Shown here in pieces: positions 986-51,204 of a DNA stretch of 64,000 bases. Every line of letters starts with the position of its first letter. Positions within the stretch are counted from its first letter, which is position 1. The position numbers and the translations under genes were made by a program. Source of the stretch: an uncultured Gammaproteobacteria bacterium (GTDB taxonomy: Bacteria > Patescibacteriota > Microgenomatia > UBA8517 > JACQJR01); the NCBI GenBank assembly GCA_964442455.1, contig CAYTZB010000005.1, positions 5,152-69,151 on the forward strand, given 5' to 3'. The notes under the pieces are model-generated. The model had not been told where the DNA came from. It saw only the letters and a program-made list of their open reading frames with translations, and did no database searches.

Positions 986-2650
986 TTATATTTTTCTAGT
1001 CTTAACAATCCTGTAGGCAACCACTCCATCGGGATAAAAAATTTCACGGATAAGCTCGAGTTTATGTTCTTTAATCTGACCGTAAGAAATTGTTAAACTA
1101 TCACCTATTAAATATTGTTCTATTGATAAGTCCTCCTCCCAAAAAATAGCGCGGGTTTTAATGTTTCCAATAATTTTGGTCCTATTGCGATTCATGTTTG
1201 TGTAATACTCGGAAAGGGGGACTTCGTAATTTTCCTCTTGATATTTCTCTGGCGGGTATTTTAATAAAAACAAAAATTGGCTATAAGGTTCAAAACGTGT
1301 ATTATCAACAACAATCGGCAACTTTGGATCAAGTTCATATTTTACAGTTTTTACAACTTCTTCCCATCCGTAATCCCAATAGAAACCCCGGAAATGTTCA
1401 TTAAGAATAATTGCCGAGCTATAAAGTTTAGCAATAGAATACAGGACAAGAATAACTAAAAGAGATAGCGCTCCAATTTTCAAGAGACGGTTTTTAAGAT
1501 GTTCCCAAAAACCAATCATACCTAAACTAATAATAATCAGCTGTGGAACAACAAGCGGAAGCGCTCGAATTGTTGAATAAGGATCACGAGTGAGTGCTGC
1601 TGGTATTGGAGCAATAAGAAGAAGGACAAGTGTAAAAAAACGAAGCTCGCCCAAATCGCGCCTTTTTACTAAAAGATACAAACCATAAAAGTAAAAAGGA
1701 AACTGCCATATAAAAAATGTTGCAAGTTCAGGGTATGAATCCCGAAAACCAGAGTCTCCCAGAATAAACATATTGCGCGGGGAAAAGTATGAAACATAAA
1801 GTGAGGCAAACTCCCAAGCAGATAGAAACCATGAACTATTAATAATAGGAGAAAAGACACCACTGTAATCTTCTAAAAACCCGGCAGGCATTTGTCGCTC
1901 GTGCGAGAGAATGTTTAGTCCGGATGCTCTGGCCAAAAACCCGGGAGTAAACATTATACTTAGTGTTGGTAAAGATATTAGTATCCCAACTATCAGAGCA
2001 GTTATTGTGAACCGTCGGAAGCCTTCTGCGAAAAGTTTTTTCCTGTACTTTAAAAAAAGTATCAAAATAATTGCTGGCGTTACTATTCTTTGGGAATGAT
2101 AGGAAGGAATGGCAATTGCGAACATTATTGCTGACAGCAAAAACCAAATCGGCCGTTCAAGTCCCCGGTAGAAAAAATAAACGCCGGCAACAAAGAAAAA
2201 TAACGCAACATTGCATTCAAAATTTGTCCTAGCGAAAACTATATGCCATGGTGAAATCGCCAGTAGTAAAGTAGTTAAAAAAGAAATTGAAATAGCCACT
2301 TTTGGCGGAGATATTTTTCTAATAAGCAAAAAAAGTATAGGAAAAGTTAAAATACTGAAAATAAATGACGGAAGACGAACAGTAAACGATGTCAAATCAA
2401 ATACCGGGATAAGAGGAACGATTAAATAAATATAAACAGGGGTTTTAAAGTCTATAAAAGAACGGAATACAAAAGGAAATGGTTTTCCAAACTCATCTTT
2501 CCCAGTTTGAAGTATGGAATAAGCATTGTAACCCTGACCCGCTTCGTCTATGTAAAGACCCGCCGGGGCTTCACCCAGTTTATAAAAACGTACGAATATC
2601 GCAAGTCCCAAGACAATAGCAAATAAAATAAAAAGGATAATTTTTTTCAC
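986..2650 (-). CDS. GT39/ArnT/PMT-like GT-C membrane glycosyltransferase
   Basis: 554 aa, multi-TM. First-loop 'YIDEAGQGYNAYS' matches the DE/DD motif typical of the ArnT/PMT family. Lies in a minus-strand operon with 4-nt overlaps. Confidence 0.65.
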   Translation of the reverse strand: MKKIILFILFAIVLGLAIFVRFYKLGEAPAGLYIDEAGQGYNAYSILQTGKDEFGKPFPFVFRSFIDFKTPVYIYLIVPLIPVFDLTSFTVRLPSFIFSILTFPILFLLIRKISPPKVAISISFLTTLLLAISPWHIVFARTNFECNVALFFFVAGVYFFYRGLERPIWFLLSAIMFAIAIPSYHSQRIVTPAIILILFLKYRKKLFAEGFRRFTITALIVGILISLPTLSIMFTPGFLARASGLNILSHERQMPAGFLEDYSGVFSPIINSSWFLSAWEFASLYVSYFSPRNMFILGDSGFRDSYPELATFFIWQFPFYFYGLYLLVKRRDLGELRFFTLVLLLIAPIPAALTRDPYSTIRALPLVVPQLIIISLGMIGFWEHLKNRLLKIGALSLLVILVLYSIAKLYSSAIILNEHFRGFYWDYGWEEVVKTVKYELDPKLPIVVDNTRFEPYSQFLFLLKYPPEKYQEENYEVPLSEYYTNMNRNRTKIIGNIKTRAIFWEEDLSIEQYLIGDSLTISYGQIKEHKLELIREIFYPDGVVAYRIVKTRKI

Positions 2651-5858: not shown

Positions 5859-6834
5859 TAATTAATTGGAGCGTCTTCTCAACAAGAGCTTTTTGGGAAT
5901 TCCATAAGAGATTGTCTATAGGTTCAACAAGTATTTCTCTAAAACCCCCTTTATTAACAACAATAGGAATGCACCCTGCTGCCATACTTTCCACAACTGT
6001 AATCCCGAAATGCTCAACCTTTTCTGGCTCTTTTTCCTCATCAACACCAAATCCTGATGCTGACCAAAAAATTTTTGCTCTTGCGTAAAGCGATTTCAAA
6101 TGATTGAAATCTAGGCTTTCAATAATCTCTATTGGGTAACCTCTGGCTTCAAACCTCAAACTTTTAGCAAATTCTTCTCCTCCAATATCGCTTCCTCCTA
6201 CAAGAATAAGCTTCCATCCTTGCAAACCCCCATCAACCATTGTTTTAAATACCGACACTAACACATCTTGCCGTTTTGCTTGAAGGAGCTGGGAAAATCT
6301 TCCAACAGAAAGAATAACATCAGCTTTAGTTTTATGACCCGCCTTGCCGTCGGGCAGGTTTATATCATCGAACTGACCAACATCAACTGGTGGATATATA
6401 ACAACACTATCTACCCCATATTCTTTATCAATAAATTTCTTTGTAAACTTTGAATTACATACAACTTCATAAATTCTTCTTAACTTCAATCGATTAAAAA
6501 GTGATTTTCCTCTCACATTATGAAATGGAACTTGAAAGTGCAGAATATTTTTCTTGGCATATAAGCGTGGAATACTTCCATCTGATAACCAAAAACACAA
6601 ATCATATTCTCTTCCCTTATGAATGCTAGAGACAACTCTCACGCCAGATAAATCTAGCCCCAATCTATCTTCCAGTTTTTTTAATATTCCAGCATCATCC
6701 CATCCTACATCCACCTCCCACCCACTCTTTTTCAAAACGTGAGCAACTGTCATCACATACCGTTCCCCACCACCAAGAGTATCCAAATATGGATTGTAAA
6801 TTGCAGCCCTCATAGCCTTCTTTGCATTTCCCAC
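5755..6834 (-). CDS. Glycosyltransferase family 1 (GT4-type, GT-B fold)
   Basis: 359 aa. C-terminal 'EHFGITVVESMAAGCIPIV' is the classic GT1 E-x7-E region. Confidence 0.75.
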   Translation of the reverse strand: MGNAKKAMRAAIYNPYLDTLGGGERYVMTVAHVLKKSGWEVDVGWDDAGILKKLEDRLGLDLSGVRVVSSIHKGREYDLCFWLSDGSIPRLYAKKNILHFQVPFHNVRGKSLFNRLKLRRIYEVVCNSKFTKKFIDKEYGVDSVVIYPPVDVGQFDDINLPDGKAGHKTKADVILSVGRFSQLLQAKRQDVLVSVFKTMVDGGLQGWKLILVGGSDIGGEEFAKSLRFEARGYPIEIIESLDFNHLKSLYARAKIFWSASGFGVDEEKEPEKVEHFGITVVESMAAGCIPIVVNKGGFREILVEPIDNLLWNSQKALVEKTLQLINDEKRRKILSHIVQQISKQFSQDRFEYEISKITA

Positions 6835-7748: not shown

Positions 7749-8698
7749 GGATTAAAACTTCCTTTCCCAAAGTTACCAAAATAATAATCTAACACTCCTC
7801 GCCGCTGCCATGACCGCCCATTGAAAAGAAGACGCGCCGACTCACGAAGTAGCGCAAATCGAGAACGAAGTGGTGCAAAGCGGCTCCCAAAGAGAAGTCG
7901 GTTGCGAGTGATGTAATAATCATTCAACTCACTCCCAATCGCAGAACTTTGCGCAACTTTGTGCCAGAGATAAGCAGATGGAGCATATAAAGTTTTAAAA
8001 CCTGTCATTTTTGCCCTTTGACAAAAATCAGCGTCTTCCCAATATAAAAAATAAGACGGGTCAAGTAGCCCAATTTTTTTAAACACTTCTTTCTTGACGA
8101 ACATACACGCACCGGTCGCAAAATCAGTCTCTGTGGTACTATCGTATTGGCCTTTATCCACTTCATCCACCCCTCGATGGCTTGCCAAAACATTATCCCA
8201 GTTAATCGCTCCCCCCGCATACCATATAACCTTTCCCAACTCTCCCTTCTTATACCTATCTTTGTGGAACTCAAAACCTTTGTAAAAATAAATTTTAGGG
8301 GAAATTATGCCAGCATGCGGGTTATTCTCTGCTGTTTTAATCAATTGAACTATTAAATTCTTATCTGTAATCGTATCGTTATTAAGAAGTACCACGTAAT
8401 CGGCATAGTCTTTTAATGCCGCTTTTATGCCCATATTATTCCCTTCCGAAAACCCTAGGTTATTTTTGTTTTCAATTAATTGAAATTTCGTGGAAAATTT
8501 TGCAAGTGTACGTAAATTTTCAACCGACCCATCAGTTGAACCATTATCAACAACAATAGTTTTGAGTTCTGAGTTTTGCCGTGCGTCGCCAAAGGCTATG
8601 CCGGCGGCGCGAGTTCTGAGTTTTGCAATGCTATCCAAGCATTGCAACGTATCTTCTTTCCCATTCCAATTAAGAATAACAATTGATACTTTTTTCAT
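7745..8698 (-). CDS. GT2-family glycosyltransferase
   Basis: 317 aa. 'VSIVILNWNGKEDTLQCLDSI...IVVDNGSTDGS' is the GT2 motif. It contains a short GC-rich insert (RTRAAGIAFGDARQNSE). Confidence 0.75.
   Translation of the reverse strand: MKKVSIVILNWNGKEDTLQCLDSIAKLRTRAAGIAFGDARQNSELKTIVVDNGSTDGSVENLRTLAKFSTKFQLIENKNNLGFSEGNNMGIKAALKDYADYVVLLNNDTITDKNLIVQLIKTAENNPHAGIISPKIYFYKGFEFHKDRYKKGELGKVIWYAGGAINWDNVLASHRGVDEVDKGQYDSTTETDFATGACMFVKKEVFKKIGLLDPSYFLYWEDADFCQRAKMTGFKTLYAPSAYLWHKVAQSSAIGSELNDYYITRNRLLFGSRFAPLRSRFALLRESARLLFNGRSWQRRGVLDYYFGNFGKGSFNP
8564..8626. repeat. 31-bp GC-rich insert flanked by a perfect 16-bp direct repeat (GAGTTCTGAGTTTTGC) inside the GT2 CDS
   Basis: 8564-8579 and 8611-8626 are identical. 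Between them lies cgtgcgtcgccaaaggctatgccggcggcgc, with imperfect palindromic ends GCGTCGCC/GGCGGCGC. It sits between the conserved CLDSI and IVVDNGS motifs. Confidence 0.5.
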
Positions 8699-8797
8699 TT
8701 TGAGCCCTGCGAAAAAACAAGCTCCGCTTATTTTGAGCCCTGCGAAAAAACAAGCTCCGCTTATTTTGAGCCCTGCGAAAAAACAAGCTCCGCTTAT
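8699..8797. repeat. Perfect 33-bp tandem repeat x3 (TTTGAGCCCTGCGAAAAAACAAGCTCCGCTTAT), followed by a hairpin CCGCTTA-tcgggt-TAAGCGG
   Basis: Three identical copies at 8699-8731, 8732-8764 and 8765-8797. The array starts immediately 5' of the ATG of GT2 gene 7745..8698 and contains the stop codon of 8794..9687. Confidence 0.9.
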
Positions 8798-9687
8798 CGG
8801 GTTAAGCGGCGCAGGAGTTTATGAAATACAGTGGGTTTTCTCATACGTTTGGCTACTAACCAATGGTCCAGTTCTCCCTCTGCATCGGTAAGTGTATTAG
8901 TAACCTCCGAAGCATCAAGAGTGATAACCTTAAACTTTTCTGCTTCCCATACCTTCAAATACAGGATAAATTCGGAAAATGCCTGAAGGAGCGACAGCGC
9001 TAACCCATGAACACCATCCTTATATCCCTCTCCAGCTAAAAACCTACTCACAAACTCATTAGTTGGTTTCGTGAGTAAATCTCGCCAATTAAATTTGTAC
9101 CCATCTCTAATTTTTGTTTCTGCTTGAATTGAACTATAGCGGTTCATTCTTTCAAGATATTGAGAAATCGATTGGTAGTTATAGTGAACAATCGCAAATC
9201 TTTCCTGCGCCGGTAAATCCCATCCAACTCCATGGGTCTCGGGTACTGAATGGATAATCTCGCTCCATAAAACACTGCCCTTCTTAAAAAATCGAATCTG
9301 GTAATCTGGCCACCAGCGTGAGTGTCTCGTCCATTGTCCAAAAATAATATTTTTACGAGGAAGGCGATAAAAATCGGCATTGGGCTTTGTTGCTAATTTT
9401 TTTAATTGCTTTGCAAGACTGTCCGGAATCTCCTCATCAGCATCAAGAACTAAAATCCAAGGACCCAAAGCTTTATTAATCGCAAAGTTGCGGGCAGGCT
9501 CAACATAACCAGTTGGCTTGTGCGAATATACTTTTGCCCCCGCCTTTTTAGCTATTTCTTGAGTGGAATCCGAAGATTCCATATCCACCACCACAATCTC
9601 AGGAGCTAAATCTTTTACAGAGGCAAGAGCTCGAGGCAAATTCTTTTCCTCGTTCCAAGTATTTATGACAACCGAAATCTTCGCCAC
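8794..9687 (-). CDS. GT2-family glycosyltransferase
   Basis: 297 aa. 'ISVVINTWNEEKNLPRALASV...VVVDMESSDST...LDADEE' is the GT2 motif set. The last codons and stop lie inside the 33-bp repeat array. Confidence 0.75.
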   Translation of the reverse strand: MAKISVVINTWNEEKNLPRALASVKDLAPEIVVVDMESSDSTQEIAKKAGAKVYSHKPTGYVEPARNFAINKALGPWILVLDADEEIPDSLAKQLKKLATKPNADFYRLPRKNIIFGQWTRHSRWWPDYQIRFFKKGSVLWSEIIHSVPETHGVGWDLPAQERFAIVHYNYQSISQYLERMNRYSSIQAETKIRDGYKFNWRDLLTKPTNEFVSRFLAGEGYKDGVHGLALSLLQAFSEFILYLKVWEAEKFKVITLDASEVTNTLTDAEGELDHWLVAKRMRKPTVFHKLLRRLTR

Positions 9688-13069: not shown

Positions 13070-13200
13070 GTAGCATTATTTCGAGCGTCAGCGAAAAACA
13101 AGCTCTGCTTATTTCGAGCAAAGCGAGAAACAAGGTTCTGTGTAAAGCACAGGTTCTTATTTCGAGCTTACGAGAAACAAGGTTCTACGCGAAGCGTAGG
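13070..13200. repeat. Degenerate array of three copies of the same repeat family seen at 8699-8797 (TATTTCGAGC-N-GCGAAAAACAAGCTCTGCTTAT...)
   Basis: Copy 1 'tatttcgagcgtcagcgaaaaacaagctctgcttat' aligns to 'ttttgagccctgcgaaaaaacaagctccgcttat'. Copies 2-3 are more diverged and carry hairpins CTGTG-taaag-CACAG and CTACGC-gaa-GCGTAG. The array lies immediately 5' of the flippase ATG. Confidence 0.7.
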
Positions 13201-13203
13201 TTA

Positions 13204-20127: not shown

Positions 20128-20167
20128 TTGGTTACTGGGTTACTGGGTTACTGGGTTACTGGGTAAC
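20128..20167. repeat. 8-bp tandem repeat TGGGTTAC x5 (3 perfect and 2 variant copies)
   Basis: Sequence is ttggttac tgggttac tgggttac tgggttac tgggtaac. It encodes the last 8 codons and the stop of 20140..21744, and lies 1-40 nt upstream of the ATG of GT2 19363..20127. Confidence 0.85.
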
Positions 20168-21744
20168 CTATGTCTCCTCTCTACCGTTATTCCTCCGAAC
20201 TTCACCTCTTTTTCAACTTTACCAATATTTTCCTGCCTCGCCAACCATGCGTCTAGCCTCTCGGGATGAGGTGGATCAACCTCATAGAGGGTATAGAGAA
20301 GTGGCACGTGCTCCTCTTTCGGCACTATCCCATATATTGTTGTTCCCCGCCACAAAAACAAATAATCGTAGGCATATGGGATTACCGGCGGGACATAAGA
20401 GTCAACATTAAAAGGAGTATTACCAGTATCTTCGTAAACCCAGTTAACTGCTTGTTTTTGGTTACCAAAAGCAATAGTATTTTGGCCGTCTACCCCTGAA
20501 GTTATATAACTTTGGATAACTGGAACATTAGTCTGCAAAAAAAGGTATAAAAAAATACCTAAAATAATTTTGCCAAACAAGGTATTGACAATAGTCGTTA
20601 ACAGAACAGAAAACAACAAAATAAAAATTAAATAGTATCCTGTAAAGTAATAGTCATAAATATTACCGTAATTACCCTGGAAGAAAAGCATTCCGGCAAG
20701 TGGGGAGAGGAAAATAATAAGTAATGTAACAAATTTCTGATTTGCAAAAAAAATCTTTCTGTTTATAATCAAAACTCCAAGTGAAATAATTCCAAATATA
20801 AATCCGTAATTTTTATAACTCATAAAAAGCTTTGAATTAAAAACATCAAAGTAAAAAAACAACCTTTGTCTGGCTACTTCCCAAAATGAACCCTTAAAAT
20901 TACCATCTCCAATTAAAAATTTAGCAATTCCAGATCTTAATATTCCATCATGGCGCAGGTCAAAAATTATTTGCGGTAAGAATGGAATAACCAAAGCAAT
21001 AACAAATAAAATCCAAATTTTCAAATCTGGCAAATTTTTCTTTTGCCCGCTTCGCGAGGCGAGCCAGATTGCAAAAACTAAAACAGCAGGAAAATAAAAA
21101 ACTTCAGCTGCTGAACCAAATTGCATTGCAAATCCTAGCATAAGTCCAGTAATAACCCATCCCCACCGTTTGCCTTTTATAATTAAAAATAAAGAAAGTA
21201 CAAGCAACATGCTAATAAGAAGCATTGGTGTTGGATTTGATAGCCAACGTGAGGCATAAACCAACTGAAAAGAAAATGTAGAAATTATAGCAGCAACAAG
21301 CCCTGTTAATCTTCCCGATACCATTACTCCGAGGATATAAATAAGTAAACTTGCAACAACGGTGGTAAAAGACAAGAATACTGATGGCCAAACTGGATTT
21401 CCGTTCCCTAATAAATAAAAAGGGGCAATCAACCAATAGTACCAAGGGCCGCGAAAAATTCCTTCTATTCCAGTTGTCGGCCCGATAAGGAAAAATTTAC
21501 CCTTATGCCACAAATCCCAAATGACAAGCGCATCTCTTCCTTGGTCATAATAAAACCCAAGGAGATTATCAATTCTCCAAACTCTCACCAAAAAAGCACC
21601 TAGAAGAATTATTGACAAAATTAGATATATTCTCGAGTGAGTCAATATCTCAGCTCTCAAACCGCTCAGCCATCGTCTCGTTCTTGTTACACTGTTATCC
21701 TGAAAGGACAAGCTCTGCTTACGTAGGGGTATAAGATTAGCCAT
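20140..21744 (-). CDS. GT-C/ArnT-like membrane glycosyltransferase (paralog of the 1..983 gene)
   Basis: 534 aa. 'YYDQGRDALVIWDLWHKGKFFLIGPTTGIEGIFRGPWYYWLIAPFY' matches the 1..983 product. The N-terminal 35 aa is uncertain: a degenerate copy of the intergenic repeat (aaaggacaagctctgcttacg) overlaps 21700-21725. Confidence 0.55.
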   Translation of the reverse strand: MANLIPLRKQSLSFQDNSVTRTRRWLSGLRAEILTHSRIYLILSIILLGAFLVRVWRIDNLLGFYYDQGRDALVIWDLWHKGKFFLIGPTTGIEGIFRGPWYYWLIAPFYLLGNGNPVWPSVFLSFTTVVASLLIYILGVMVSGRLTGLVAAIISTFSFQLVYASRWLSNPTPMLLISMLLVLSLFLIIKGKRWGWVITGLMLGFAMQFGSAAEVFYFPAVLVFAIWLASRSGQKKNLPDLKIWILFVIALVIPFLPQIIFDLRHDGILRSGIAKFLIGDGNFKGSFWEVARQRLFFYFDVFNSKLFMSYKNYGFIFGIISLGVLIINRKIFFANQKFVTLLIIFLSPLAGMLFFQGNYGNIYDYYFTGYYLIFILLFSVLLTTIVNTLFGKIILGIFLYLFLQTNVPVIQSYITSGVDGQNTIAFGNQKQAVNWVYEDTGNTPFNVDSYVPPVIPYAYDYLFLWRGTTIYGIVPKEEHVPLLYTLYEVDPPHPERLDAWLARQENIGKVEKEVKFGGITVERRHRLPSNPVTQ

Positions 21745-23942
21745 TATGGTTTCCCGCTTGGATTATGTACAAGTCTGTATAATTTTACCCCTGCCACGTC
21801 CCACTCTTTGTCAATCTTAGACCAACCAAAAACCGTAATTTCTGCCTTGGGATTATGTGTCGGGTCACACTTTTCTTGAGGTAACTCACATACAACAAAT
21901 AATTGCTCAGCAACTGTTTCCTCATATTTTAGAGGGTCTATATCTCTTACTGGTTCTTTCCACCACTCAAGGAAATACTGATAAGCATCTTCATAATTTC
22001 GCTCGGCCAAGACAGCCAAATTAAATGTTTGGCCTTTTGCTTCCTGCACAATCTTTGCTGCCACCTCTCCCGTCCTCTGAAGTTGCCTTTGGGGAGGATT
22101 CTTGATTGGTGTCATGGAAAGGTTAAGTAGTATCAAAAACACTAAAGCAGCGAACAGTAAAAAGTTTGTAATTTGTAATTTGTAATTTGTAATTTCTTGG
22201 GCTAACATGCCCAACAAAAAAAATGGTATCACAAACATAAATCCAAAATAGTGGTCGTAGATATTTTGTTTTAAAAGTGCCATACCGCTTAAACCGAACC
22301 CCACCCAAACAAGGAGGAGGAAAGAGGGTGACTGGAAGAATGTTTGGCGCTGTTTGGCTACAATCCAAAATGTACCTATAAGGGTAACCACGGCAATGAA
22401 TCTTCCCCACAATTCGTTCATTGCACCAACCAAACGTGTCATCTCTTGCTGGAACAATGGCCACAGTTCTGGAATTGCATTCCAAGGACGAGCAGAAACA
22501 GTGGCTTGCCGCTCGGTAAAGAAAATACGCATTGCCTCAAAATTGCGCCAACCATGGCGGGCATCGAAGATAACGAGAGGAGACATGAGTAGCGCAAAAA
22601 GCGCTGAGGCGATGAGAGTATAGAGGATGAATTTTCCATTTATTTTCGAATTTCTAATTTTTTGAAATGTCAGAAGCCAGAATAGTCCAATCGTTGGAGC
22701 AAGAAGTAGACCAAGATAATGAGACTGTAACACAAACGCATACGACACACCTAAAACTAAAAGCCACTTCCACTCGTGGTGTTTCCATACACGCCACACT
22801 GAATAAATAGACAAAAGAGCAAAAAAGGGCATGATATTAGGATTCCAAGAGGAGCGAGAATAGGTAATCACAACTGGTGAAACTGCATACAAACTTGCGG
22901 CAACAACCGCCGCTACTTTTCCAAACCACTCCCTGCTAACCCACCAAACAAATCCGGTAGTAGCGACTCCGAGAGCAGCAACTTGCGCTACGGGGCCAAC
23001 TGGGGAAAGACGAAAAAGAAAAAGTGCCGGTGCAATCAGGTAATAATAAAGGGGTCCCAGATACATATTGCCAATAGAGGTACCCGGGCCGACTAAAATA
23101 GGGTCGAAGTCAACGAGGAGACGCCGCACCACAATCGCATCCCTTCCTTCGTCTCCCAGAAAAGTCATATACTCTGATAATCGATAAAATCGAAGAAACG
23201 CACCAACGATTAAAATTGTGAGTAAGGCAAAAAATTCAAGTTTCGGCAAGAATTTCCACCAAATTTTAAAAAGATCGATGTAAGACTGTATTATTACTTT
23301 TATATTAGCTCCCGTAGGTCTGCCAGCAAGACGTGGATAATGGTTAACTCCCACCTCAACAACGTTAAACCCAAATTTTTTAGCCTTTACTGCAAGTTCT
23401 GCATTAATCATTCCTCCCCGTTTCGACTCAAGATGTGGAATCTGCTCGAGCACTCTTTTTTTAACCATCTTAAAGCCGCAATCAACATCCCGAAGTTTCA
23501 GTCCAAAAAGGGTAAATAAGGATAAAGCCCACCCTTTTGCAAAAAGAAGTCTAAAAAATGGGTCTTGCCTTTTAATCCTGTATCCAATAATCAAATCGGC
23601 GGTATCTAATTTTTCTATAAATTTTGAACTTTCTGAAAAATCAAATTGCCCATCAGAATCGGTATACGCAATTACATCGTAGCGGGCGTTATAAAATCCT
23701 GACTTTAAAGCCTCACCATAACCTAAGTTTTCCTTATGATTAATAACTCTAATCCTATCATCCTGTTTACTTAGTTCTCGTGCTATCTCACCTGTTTTAT
23801 CGGTTGAGCCATCATTAATAATAATGACTTCCCACTGTGCCGCAACTTTTTTAAGGACACCGATTGAGCTTTTTACTGTACGTTCTAAATTTGCTTCTTC
23901 GTTATAAGCAGGGAAGAAGACAGAGAGCGCGCTGATTTTCAT
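21744..23942 (-). CDS. Bifunctional fusion: N-terminal GT2 (DPM1-like) plus C-terminal GT-C/ArnT-like membrane domain
   Basis: 732 aa. The N-terminus 'FFPAYNEEANL...IIINDGSTDKT...TDSDGQ' is GT2. From about residue 230 the protein is polytopic, with 'FLGDEGRDAIVVRRL...GPLYYYLIAP' resembling the other GT-C paralogs. Confidence 0.7.
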   Translation of the reverse strand: MKISALSVFFPAYNEEANLERTVKSSIGVLKKVAAQWEVIIINDGSTDKTGEIARELSKQDDRIRVINHKENLGYGEALKSGFYNARYDVIAYTDSDGQFDFSESSKFIEKLDTADLIIGYRIKRQDPFFRLLFAKGWALSLFTLFGLKLRDVDCGFKMVKKRVLEQIPHLESKRGGMINAELAVKAKKFGFNVVEVGVNHYPRLAGRPTGANIKVIIQSYIDLFKIWWKFLPKLEFFALLTILIVGAFLRFYRLSEYMTFLGDEGRDAIVVRRLLVDFDPILVGPGTSIGNMYLGPLYYYLIAPALFLFRLSPVGPVAQVAALGVATTGFVWWVSREWFGKVAAVVAASLYAVSPVVITYSRSSWNPNIMPFFALLSIYSVWRVWKHHEWKWLLVLGVSYAFVLQSHYLGLLLAPTIGLFWLLTFQKIRNSKINGKFILYTLIASALFALLMSPLVIFDARHGWRNFEAMRIFFTERQATVSARPWNAIPELWPLFQQEMTRLVGAMNELWGRFIAVVTLIGTFWIVAKQRQTFFQSPSFLLLVWVGFGLSGMALLKQNIYDHYFGFMFVIPFFLLGMLAQEITNYKLQITNFLLFAALVFLILLNLSMTPIKNPPQRQLQRTGEVAAKIVQEAKGQTFNLAVLAERNYEDAYQYFLEWWKEPVRDIDPLKYEETVAEQLFVVCELPQEKCDPTHNPKAEITVFGWSKIDKEWDVAGVKLYRLVHNPSGKP
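22165..22192. repeat. Heptanucleotide tandem repeat TTTGTAA x4 inside the CDS of 21744..23942
   Basis: Four perfect copies. On the coding strand this reads (AAATTAC)n and encodes ...EITNYKLQITN.... The unit length is not a multiple of 3. Confidence 0.85.
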
Positions 23943-27131: not shown

Positions 27132-27866
27132 ATGAAAATAGACATTATTACTTTGTTTCCAGATATGTTTCTGGGACCCTTTAATGAATCCATCCTTCGA
27201 CGGGCTCAGGATAAATCATTAGTGGAAATAAACATTCACAACCTTAGAAAGTGGGCAATTGACACACACCGGACTGTGGATGATAAACCATATGGCGGAG
27301 GAGTTGGAATGGTATTGATGGTAGAACCGATTCATCAAGCCCTACAGGCACTACGAACTACCAACTCCCAGCCACATACTATTTTACTTGATCCTGCTGG
27401 TATCCCTTTCAATCAAATAAAAGCACAAGAGTTGTCAAAATTAGACCATCTCATACTTATTGCCGGCCATTATGAAGGGGTGGACGAACGCGTCAAAGAA
27501 CATCTTGTGGATGAAGAATTATCAATTGGTGATTATGTTTTAACCGGTGGAGAGCTGCCTGCAATGGTAGTAGTTGATGCGGTAGTCAGACTCATACCCG
27601 GAGTTCTCGAAAAACCCGAAGCCACCCAATTTGAATCCTTCTCCCCAATCACTAATCACCCCGCCGAAGGCGAGGCTCGCCAAGGGCGGCAATCACTCAT
27701 CACTACCCTTGAATATCCCCAATATACTCGTCCTGAAAACTTTAAAGGATGGAAAGTTCCACAAATACTTTTATCGGGAAACCACAAGGAAATCGAAAAG
27801 TGGAGAAGTGAACACGCCCTTGAAAAAACAAAAAAAAGAAGACCAGATCTTTTAAAGAATTCTTAA
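27132..27866 (+). CDS. trmD: tRNA (guanine37-N1)-methyltransferase TrmD
   Basis: '[13 protein letters not shown]...[13 protein letters not shown]...[27 protein letters not shown]' is canonical TrmD. The ORF-track entry 26868..27866 has an 88-aa N-terminal extension. The ATG at 27132 has an AGAGG ribosome-binding site 6 nt upstream. Confidence 0.85.
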
Positions 27867-31395: not shown

Positions 31396-31423
31396 AAATT
31401 GAAAATTGAAAATTGAAAATTGA
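31396..31423. repeat. Heptanucleotide tandem repeat AAATTGA x4 in the 5'UTR/RBS region of 31148..31393
   Basis: Four perfect copies, immediately adjacent to the start codon and downstream of the stop of the CAP-domain gene. Confidence 0.85.
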
Positions 31424-31431
31424 AAATTTAA

Positions 31432-32458: not shown

Positions 32459-32533
32459 GAAAACTCAAGATACATACTGTATACTCATCTTACTTGAGTT
32501 TTCAACTTTTAAGCCTGCCTGCCGGCAGGCAGG
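32459..32533. promoter_or_regulatory. Divergent intergenic region holding a long imperfect inverted repeat (GAAAACTCAAG...CTTGAGTTTTC, 32459-32503) and a perfect 20-bp GC palindrome CCTGCCTGCCGGCAGGCAGG (32514-32533)
   Basis: The 11-bp arms are read directly from the sequence. The GC palindrome is nearly identical to CCTGCCTGCGCAGGCAGG inside the 7263-7433 element. Confidence 0.5.
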
Positions 32534-49631: not shown

Positions 49632-49637
49632 AGTTCT

Positions 49638-49663
49638 GTTTTAATGTTTCGAAACATTAAAAC
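49638..49663. promoter_or_regulatory. Perfect 26-bp palindrome GTTTTAATGTTTC|GAAACATTAAAAC, 7 nt upstream of the tsaE start (copy 1 of 3)
   Basis: Read directly. The core TGTTTCGAAACA is shared with the copies at 50564-50589 and 51087-51110. Confidence 0.6.
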
Positions 49664-49686
49664 AATCATCAGCCCAATGTTTCTTC

Positions 49687-50583
49687 TCACTCTTTATCGG
49701 TATCAGTTAAATTTATAGTTTTTCTCTCTCTCATAAACACAATTGTCGTCCCAACAAGAAAACTTAGTCCTGTAATAATAAAGATTACAGGCAAAACAGG
49801 CAATTCTTTGAACCAACCGCCTATTTTTGTTTCCTCTCCTAGTGTCGGTGAAGGAGAAGAAGTTTGTCCCTCTTGCAAACCAAGTACAATTGGCTCTGAT
49901 GTTGGAGAAGGAGAATTTTTTGGGCTGGCCGTTGGCTTTGGCGTAGGAGTCTTTGTAGGAGTTGGAGTTTTGGTTGGGGTGGGAGTAGGTGTCTTTGTGG
50001 GCGTCGGTGCAAGAGTCTGCGAGGGGGTTGGGGTTGGAGAAGGAGTGGGAGAAGGTGTGGGTGTTTGAGGTATAGAGTTAGTCGATCCTTTAGTTGCAGT
50101 TTGTAAGATTGAGAATATCCCTGTACGATCAGGACTCCTCCCTATCGATATACCGTCACCAGGATTCGAAGTATACTGGTACTGATCAACAATCGCCCCA
50201 GAAGAATCAAAAAGCACCACATGATCCCATTCTCCGGCGCTGTTGGCACTGTTGTTTAAAAAGGAATCCATCTCTATAAAGGGGTATGTCGTGCTCGTAG
50301 TAACAAGATCAGCCAAGACTTTCTTGGTGCTACTCCCAGTATCGGTTGTAAAATCCGTATCGTCATCAAGCCAATAGGACTTTAAGAATTCAGCACTACT
50401 TGATGCATTATAAAACTCAACCCACTCAGGATTCCCATCAACCAAAAACTCATTTATCACCACCTGTGCAAAAGAATTCGTTGGGAAAACCAACCAAAGA
50501 ATAAAAAATAAACCTAAGGAGAAAACTGCTTTCGTTAAACCAAAGATAACTATATTCAATTTTGTTTTAATGTTTCGAAACAT
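49687..50583 (-). CDS. Lamin-tail-domain (LTD) cell-surface protein with a Pro/Thr-rich linker and a C-terminal TM anchor
   Basis: After the signal peptide, '[22 protein letters not shown]...YWLDDD' is an LTD. Then comes '(PTPS/PTKT)n', about 70 aa of low complexity, then '[24 protein letters not shown]'. Confidence 0.6.
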
Positions 50584-50589
50584 CGAAGC
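50564..50589. promoter_or_regulatory. Palindromic operator copy 2 (GTTTTAATGTTTCGAAACATCGAAGC), overlapping the ATG of the LTD gene
   Basis: The left half-site and the 12-bp core are perfect. The right arm diverges (CATCGAAGC vs CATTAAAAC). Confidence 0.55.
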
Positions 50590-50592
50590 AAT

Positions 50593-51086: not shown

Positions 51087-51110
51087 GTTTTAATGTTTCG
51101 AAACATCGAA
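51087..51110. promoter_or_regulatory. Palindromic operator copy 3 (GTTTTAATGTTTCGAAACATCGAA), about 27 nt upstream of the YerC-like gene start
   Basis: Same motif as the other two copies. Its position is consistent with autoregulation. Confidence 0.55.
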
Positions 51111-51204
51111 ACCTAAGAAGTCGATGTAAATGTAATTCAATTTAATCGGTCAATGGTGGATTTATAAAAATGGATTAAGGATAACTTCCGAACCGAGTAA
51201 GCCC

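Follow-up and report, generated by a model that had tools for sequence, protein, structure and literature searches.

Heptanucleotides are the most abundant long simple sequence repeats (LSSRs) in many bacterial genomes, a result of Mrazek et al. (2007) as summarized in PMC4679880 and PMC4692102, and the basis proposed in that work, again as these two papers relate it, is that about 7 nt is the length contacting the polymerase during slippage. LSSRs with units of 5-11 nt are commonest in large high-GC genomes, and GGGNATC heptamers show a preference for four units (PMC4692102). Here, we describe a perfect heptanucleotide array, (AAATTAC)x4.4, inside a gene for a fused GT2 and GT-C glycosyltransferase on a 64,000-nucleotide stretch of contig CAYTZB010000005.1 (assembly GCA_964442455.1), hereafter the window. 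The array is a member, in a lineage of the candidate phyla radiation (CPR), of the known bacterial heptanucleotide LSSR class, and this lineage is new for the class. It is probably a by-product of frame-filtered slippage, that is, a slippage-derived heptanucleotide LSSR in a permissive helix-turn-helix linker of the encoded enzyme.

TAACTGA arrays of marine Beggiatoaceae, cyanobacteria and Bacteroidetes hold 2-6 copies, and most of them finish about 1 nt ahead of a start codon, frequently with no Shine-Dalgarno sequence; some overlap the upstream stop codon, the unit giving stops in all frames (PMC4679880). Phase-variable simple sequence repeats (SSRs) have a reversible local hypermutability 100-10,000 times the basal rate, and their switching depends on repeat number (PMC11868660). 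The heptamers of hmw1A/hmw2A in Haemophilus influenzae reach 13-38 copies, lie mostly in the promoter, modulate transcription and vary between strains, and one strain carries (AATTTTG)14 inside the hmw1a open reading frame (ORF) with a frameshift (PMC2651432).

The tract can be read directly from the window, where the forward strand at 22165..22195 is TTTGTAA repeated four times and followed by TTT, and the coding (minus) strand is AAATTAC repeated four times and followed by AAA. Tandem Repeats Finder (TRF) reports it with a period of 7, 4.4 copies, 100% matches and a score of 62. The initial annotation had placed a heptanucleotide repeat inside the coding sequence at 22165-22192, which corresponds to the four complete units. 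The tract starts at nt 1748 of the ORF at 21744..23942 and codes AQEITNYKLQITNF, amino acids 583-593 (ITNYKLQITNF).

22165..22195, minus strand: perfect heptanucleotide array (AAATTAC)x4.4 (TRF, Markov resampling, translation)

The chance expectation was obtained from 200 first-order Markov resamplings of the window, in which perfect arrays with a period of 4-12, at least 3 copies and a length of at least 22 bp were counted. Three such arrays are observed in the window versus none in the 200 resamplings; the tract is real and not due to chance. The AAATTAC unit is free of stop codons in all three frames of the coding strand, and the opposite strand has TAA. A G-run, on which the G-quadruplex criterion of the GGGNATC heptamers depends, is absent from the unit (AAATTAC/GTAATTT). 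As in an SSR contingency locus, the tract is uninterrupted, has a unit that is not a multiple of three, lies in an ORF and goes beyond the expectation from composition.

The repeat class extends through the lineage. A census with TRF (score of at least 40) and an expectation from an order-3 Markov model was made over 1.59 Mb, comprising the window, the locus of a sister species (L001) and 80 loci that surround homologs from further Microgenomates. The loci obtained by contig scan are from distant relatives (40-61% identity) and not from the closest genomes, some are from single-cell genomes, and all are glycosylation neighbourhoods, hence biased for gene class. In this sample, 35 period-7 arrays are observed versus 0.2 expected; period 6 yields 2 arrays and period 8 yields 11. 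At a TRF score of at least 50, there are 13 period-7 arrays versus 0 expected, 12 of which are 29-33 bp long, and the lengths of period-7 arrays overall are almost all 28-34 bp. Heptamers in only two copies are near chance (219 versus 161 expected), like those of other unit sizes; perfect heptamer arrays of 4.3-4.7 copies number 7 versus 0 expected. The copy-number mode is 4.4 with a minor class at 3.4, and 24/35 arrays hold 4.0-4.7 copies. Intact coding sequences contain 27/35 of the arrays, many of them in GT-C paralogs and some encoding transmembrane segments, and 7/35 are intergenic, mostly 2-23 nt upstream of start codons.

Housekeeping genes are among the carriers. At the sister-species locus, heptamer arrays occur in trmD (two sites), the ortholog of the focal gene (two sites), a 544-aa PMT_2 gene and a 572-aa membrane-protein gene. 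The trmD orthologs of several genera have arrays at the same relative positions, about 0.31 and 0.73, built from units that differ. Such trmD arrays are present in at least 5 genomes, with many other arrays in GT-C paralogs, the sampled loci being biased to glycosylation clusters. In the window, the 0.73 site of trmD is a linker just ahead of the conserved LEYPQYTRP motif, and the one substitution in the L001 trmD array abolishes a TGA. Since heptamer arrays are also found in this housekeeping gene, the tract belongs to a repeat class spread over the genome and is not peculiar to surface genes.

The lengths of these arrays are quantised. When orthologs with and without an array are anchored on both flanks, they differ in length by exactly 21 nt in at least 7 comparisons, which include the following 21-nt differences:

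L023 (AAATTTC)x4.57 versus L021 'AAATTTCAAAT' and versus L078
L001 site A (described below) versus the window
L023:3070 and L072:1742 versus L049
L030 and L051 trmD arrays versus L066

Intergenic or gene-edge arrays show differences of roughly one unit (7 nt): the arrays of L013 and L018 differ in length by 7 nt, as do an octamer array of the window and its L001 counterpart.

Both the frame and the quantisation bear on the possibility that a longer array was collapsed to about k bases by a k-mer assembler. The clustering of lengths at 29-33 bp, near common small k values, would fit such a collapse. Final assembler k values are, however, normally well above 31, and identical tracts are found in an independently assembled strain and in three sister-species assemblies, with arrays present in the assemblies of many projects and in single-cell genomes. 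Collapse would keep the frame only a third of the time, whereas all 27 coding arrays are in frame, and clean 21-nt differences between orthologs are not expected from it. Independent assemblies, frame preservation and these clean differences led us to reject the artefact, which is left with a very low probability.

A comparison with the sister species reveals another unit at the focal site. The focal gene is 86% identical in nucleotide sequence between the two species (75.6% at third-codon positions) with conserved tract flanks, and at the focal site the sister species has a different perfect in-frame array, (CAGGTTTCAGGTGC)x2.9, built of two 7-nt sub-units. The initial annotation had asked for the units of orthologs to be compared and had regarded conservation of the same amino-acid repeat as a sign of protein-level selection; the ortholog, 87% identical in protein sequence, carries another 7-periodic array at the same site with different DNA. 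On this comparison, the focal site has been 7-periodic since before the species split and its unit has turned over, the mark left by an array that shrinks and expands again repeatedly. The tract is translated and in frame, and a repeated peptide (ITNYKLQ ITN) might by itself be the object of selection, except that orthologs have unrelated residues and only a similar length, that the DNA-level repeat is perfect including all synonymous positions, and that the peptide spans just 1.4 periods. Because the repeat in the sister species is different, protein-level selection for the peptide would be excluded; the ortholog alignments have already largely refuted this explanation, and we regard it as very improbable.

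The same gene has a second repeat site.

22630..22646, minus strand: 'site A', a second loop holding about 1.5 AAATGGA-type units (comparison with the sister species)

In the sister species, site A holds (AATTGGA)x4.3, a clean 21-bp in-frame difference from the window. AATTGGA-type heptamers are also seen at site A (about amino acids 430-437) in distant genera, and the site A arrays are L001 11302..11331 (4.3 copies), L051 11328..11359 (4.6 copies) and L050 643..675 (2.4 copies of a 14-mer). Site A seems to be a hot spot for repeats that is either recurrent or very old.

The host gene encodes a 732-aa protein whose parts are listed below.

21744..23942, minus strand: host gene, 732-aa GT2 + GT-C fusion glycosyltransferase (Pfam, homologs, Foldseek)
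23442..23924, minus strand: GT2 domain, amino acids 7-167, ArnC/GtrB/DPMS-like (Pfam, Foldseek)
22569..23054, minus strand: core of the PMT_2 / GT-C membrane domain, amino acids 297-458, ArnT/ALG12-like (Pfam, Foldseek)
22116..22175, minus strand: last predicted transmembrane helix, amino acids 590-609, its first residues encoded by the array (AlphaFold2 model)
21765..22085, minus strand: conserved C-terminal alpha/beta domain, amino acids 620-726 (alignment, AlphaFold2 model)

Pfam assigns Glycos_transf_2 to amino acids 7-167 (E 1e-30) and PMT_2 to amino acids 297-458 (E 3e-13). The AlphaFold2 model, built with 20 homologs, has a mean predicted local distance difference test (pLDDT) of 83.4, and Foldseek matches its N-terminal half to ArnC, GtrB and DPMS (E 2e-12 to 1e-10) and its membrane half to ArnT and ALG12 (E about 5e-7). 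ArnC/GtrB/DPMS and ArnT-type enzymes thus resemble the two halves of the protein in structure; unlike them, it combines both predicted activities in one 732-aa chain and adds a conserved C-terminal alpha/beta domain rich in invariant or nearly invariant residues, among them the invariant N649 and Y650 and the motif C692-D-P-T-H696, conserved at 90% or more. With both domains in one chain, the gene is a GT2 + GT-C fusion. Its family counts 2658 matches at E <= 1e-10, and the best 120 of these 2658 are nearly all 710-760-aa two-domain fusions from Microgenomates, Daviesbacteria or Woesebacteria. An identical protein (P0121) is on an 85-kb NCBI contig named 'Candidatus Microgenomates bacterium', and another (P0001) has a single difference, A390E. 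The fusion architecture proposed in the initial annotation is upheld by the agreement of Pfam with the structural matches, and the CPR origin that it suspected by the NCBI name. At 1-32 kb, the window is a very large envelope glycosylation cluster with several PMT_2 paralogs, YfhO, GT1, several GT2, a flippase and a GtrA-type GT2.

In an alignment with 20 homologs, the tract occupies a non-conserved segment between conserved blocks, where its length is close to that of the homologs. In the AlphaFold2 model, helix 572-585 ends within the stretch of amino acids 583-593, which continues with a turn of four residues (586-589) and runs into the transmembrane helix 590-609. When slippage is simulated, a change of +/-1 or +/-2 units shortens the product to 597-608 aa, without the last transmembrane helix and without the conserved C-terminal domain, and slips of +/-3 units keep the frame, with 725 or 739 aa. 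A gain or loss of one unit therefore frameshifts and truncates the gene as had been predicted, with a loss of about 135-150 native residues in place of the roughly 190 first estimated. In silico, a change in unit number would thus switch expression ON or OFF.

Variation was compared between consensus assemblies of few genomes, a comparison of low power in which minority length variants are invisible. A second strain, L084 (GCA_016182755.1), is 99.73% identical to the window over 12.6 kb, with 14 substitutions and one indel, and none of the three window arrays differs in length between the two. The one indel is a 20-nt palindrome at 32514..32533, unrelated to the repeats. The sister species (P0002, 87% amino-acid identity) is represented by one metagenome-assembled genome (MAG) and two assemblies from Hainich groundwater; these three differ by 3-4 substitutions over 13-15 kb that include eight arrays, with no gaps and no change in array length. 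Across the comparisons in both species, none of 11 arrays changes in length. For each species, a second allele is on record, with one amino-acid substitution and the same length. A search of 5.8 billion protein clusters, in which the next-best match is only 67% identical, brought up no allele that is truncated or changed by +/-7 aa, and a scan of metagenomes of the Joint Genome Institute (JGI), with anchors identical in both species and a variable gap over the tract, returned only the two known Hainich contigs. Of the 27 heptamer arrays in coding sequences across 1.6 Mb from relatives, not one is out of frame. Two arrays were considered as gene splits by an OFF allele and rejected on account of unrelated flanks: at L024 3991-4021 an NTP-transferase (NTP, nucleoside triphosphate) stands next to a dehydratase, and at L045 3779-3806 a CarboxypepD_reg protein stands next to an fn3 protein.

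These data bear on whether the tract is a genuine contingency locus, slipping at an elevated rate, turning the fusion glycosyltransferase ON and OFF and making surface glycans heterogeneous in a CPR population. The tract is far beyond chance length and its unit length is not divisible by 3. With its four units, it passes the threshold of at least 3 that is used to nominate heptamers as phase-variable SSRs (PMC2651432). After a slip of +/-1 or 2 units, the protein would end ahead of its last transmembrane helix and of the conserved C-terminal domain, the gene is one among many paralogous envelope glycosyltransferases so that its loss may be tolerated, and the turnover of units in the sister species indicates activity in slippage on an evolutionary time scale. 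The hmw1a gene of H. influenzae is a precedent for an intragenic heptamer SSR with a frameshift, but with 14 units, while the tract has only 4.4 and the switching rate scales with repeat number (PMC11868660). Strain polymorphism and OFF alleles were the two further marks of a contingency locus that were examined, and neither is seen in the few consensus genomes compared: lengths agree between the two strains and among the three sister-species assemblies in 11 arrays, truncated or +/-7-aa alleles are not on record, the anchored JGI scan gave no further variants, and 0/27 coding arrays in relatives are out of frame. Genomes with real contingency genes usually hold ON and OFF alleles mixed. Heptamer arrays are, moreover, also found in trmD. 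For want of length polymorphism, of a frameshifted allele and of any out-of-frame array among 27, and in view of the trmD arrays, the phase-variation switch put forward in the initial annotation is not borne out, and a contingency locus seems to us unlikely.

We favour slippage as the generating process and infer that the tract has no switching role. Arrays of ~30 bp in Microgenomates would grow and shrink as replication slips, strongly favouring units of 7 nt, and the states surviving inside genes would be units without a stop in any frame and differences of three units (21 nt). A survival filter of this kind would account for the coding peak near 4.4 copies (1.4 + 3), for the perfection of the arrays and for the drift of units between species. 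The linker at amino acids 583-593, structurally permissive and just before the last transmembrane helix, would tolerate an in-frame tract. The tract would here be fixed in frame and the enzyme presumably full length, and single-unit slips would produce truncated null alleles as a by-product rather than through a dedicated switch.

Several points weigh against frame-filtered slippage as the explanation. If the arrays were a purely neutral by-product, their persistence or their recurrence at equal positions in different genera would have no obvious explanation. The few intergenic arrays also have about 4.4-4.7 copies, though no frame filter operates there. To pass from 1.4 to 4.4 copies, the essential trmD would have to gain three units in one jump or go through intermediates that are tolerated. 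Every sampled locus is a glycosylation neighbourhood, which biases any enrichment by gene class, and consensus assemblies hide minority length variants.

The intergenic arrays suggest a different explanation, in which the arrays are cis-acting nucleic-acid elements, such as sites for an RNA- or DNA-binding factor, a role proposed for the TAACTGA repeats of Beggiatoaceae, and the coding copies are tolerated or exploited. Two further arrays of the window, absent from the initial annotation and of the same repeat class as the focal tract, are relevant.

20130..20164, minus strand: perfect octamer array (CCAGTAAC)x4.4 (TRF, Markov resampling)
31396..31428, minus strand: perfect heptamer array (TCAATTT)x4.7 (TRF, Markov resampling)

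The first includes the TAA stop of a 534-aa GT-C gene, and 2 nt separate its end from the ATG of the GT2 gene that follows. A Shine-Dalgarno sequence is lacking between array and ATG, and the CCAGTAAC unit has stops in all frames. Its sister-species counterpart is an imperfect array, 7 nt shorter, and the upstream gene there ends at an ATGA overlap. The second fills the spacer from the stop of a CAP-domain gene to the ATG of an 81-aa membrane ORF (margins of 3 nt and 2 nt) and has an equal length in L084. Both arrays thus end 2 nt before a start codon, and one includes the upstream stop, a geometry like that of TAACTGA arrays (PMC4679880). Units of the AAATTGA/ATTAGAA type recur intergenically in several genera, directly upstream of a TGnTATACT box before a CAP-domain gene, and intergenic arrays also have roughly 4.4 copies without a frame filter. 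The units are, however, highly diverse and wholly different at the focal site between the sister species, which argues against a sequence-specific binder; 27/35 arrays are within coding sequences, at loops or transmembrane segments; and no Rfam family matched anywhere in the window. A cis-acting role is accordingly judged improbable, and frame-filtered slippage is retained as the preferred explanation.

Additional repeats were noted in the sampled loci. Three Daviesbacteria have ATTAGAA/ATTGAAA arrays at L013 955..985 (4.4 copies), L016 2021..2051 (4.4 copies) and L018 2411..2434 (3.4 copies); these immediately precede a TGnTATACT -10-like box, which stands 6-7 nt away from the start (ATG) of the CAP-domain gene in a leaderless-like arrangement. 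Octamer arrays of TTTTGAGT / AAAAACTC recur in three genomes (L022 6224..6251, 6646..6693 and 8823..8850; L036 270..307 and 1730..1765; L029 16763..16789), which suggests a genome-specific preferred unit.

Palindromes accompany some repeats. The 20-nt perfect palindrome at 32514..32533, CCTGCCTGCCGGCAGGCAGG, is upstream of the CAP-domain gene; it is missing from L084 and has no flanking duplication. In the trmD gene of the window (27132..27866, plus strand), a degenerate heptamer run of AATCACY units extends over 27645..27706 in the interdomain linker and contains a 29-nt GC-rich palindrome, CCGCCGAAGGCGAGGCTCGCCAAGGGCGG, at 27661..27689; an in-frame segment of 30 nt separates the two heptamer runs. 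Equivalent trmD hot spots elsewhere hold heptamer arrays or GC-rich palindromic inserts (L015, L027). A transposon footprint, in which insertion and excision of a palindrome leave a 7-bp target duplication that is then amplified, was considered and rejected, since the palindrome variable in L084 lacks a flanking duplication and that of trmD is merely within an array. A perfect 33-bp repeat in 3.1 copies (8697..8797) makes up the whole spacer between two GT2 genes, and a 47-bp repeat in 2 copies (13108..13202) lies between the flippase gene and the next gene. The palindrome GTTTTAATGTTTCG / CGAAACAT occurs in three successive intergenic spacers of a peptidase gene cluster (49637..49664, 50562..50591 and 51087..51112) and may serve as terminator or operator.

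If the tract did switch, the surface glycans of CPR episymbionts would be diversified by the first contingency loci described in CPR, with a bearing on host attachment and phage evasion of these ultra-small cells. A single short repeat in a MAG is, as a caution, insufficient for calling phase variation. It is conceivable, though rather doubtful, that Microgenomates have quantised 'accordion' heptamer tracts at conserved permissive sites, generated by 7-nt-specific slippage, and that those in redundant envelope glycosyltransferases turn their genes ON and OFF at a low rate. The excess of heptanucleotides in bacteria, which is poorly understood, extends to Microgenomates with an unusually clean signature, namely frame-filtered three-unit (21-nt) changes in genes, one of them essential, and this 21-nt signature could be of use in testing an older proposal of a 7-nt slippage preference in the replicative polymerase.

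Compared with known systems, the tract shares the heptamer unit with the hmw1A/hmw2A repeats, and unlike most of them it is intragenic; it has 4.4 copies and shows no strain variation in the comparisons made. As in SSR phase variation of surface-glycan glycosyltransferases (for example, the tetranucleotide loci of H. influenzae; PMC2651432, PMC11868660), a repeat that is not a multiple of 3 lies in the ORF, where a one-unit slip would truncate the product. Documented SSR switches usually have longer tracts, copy-number differences between strains and ON/OFF alleles, whereas the focal tract has 4.4 units, is invariant in every comparison made and belongs to a class shared with a housekeeping gene. 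Only the window arrays at 20130..20164 and 31396..31428 have the start-codon geometry of TAACTGA arrays. TAACTGA arrays keep to one conserved unit and nearly always lie between genes; the focal tract, in contrast, is intragenic with a species-specific unit, and across the census one conserved intergenic unit is not what is found, the units being diverse and 27/35 arrays coding. The closest likeness is with the bacterial heptanucleotide LSSRs. Unlike the known members of that class, the Microgenomates arrays are mostly (27/35) in coding sequence and in frame, their units are A/T-rich and diverse with no single genome-wide motif and no possible G-quadruplex, and their genomes are small and low-GC rather than large and high-GC. 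Like them, these arrays are tandem heptamers that occur beyond random expectation at many loci per genome, dominate among repeats of 5-11 nt, keep to few copies with a preference for about four units, and often abut start or stop codons.

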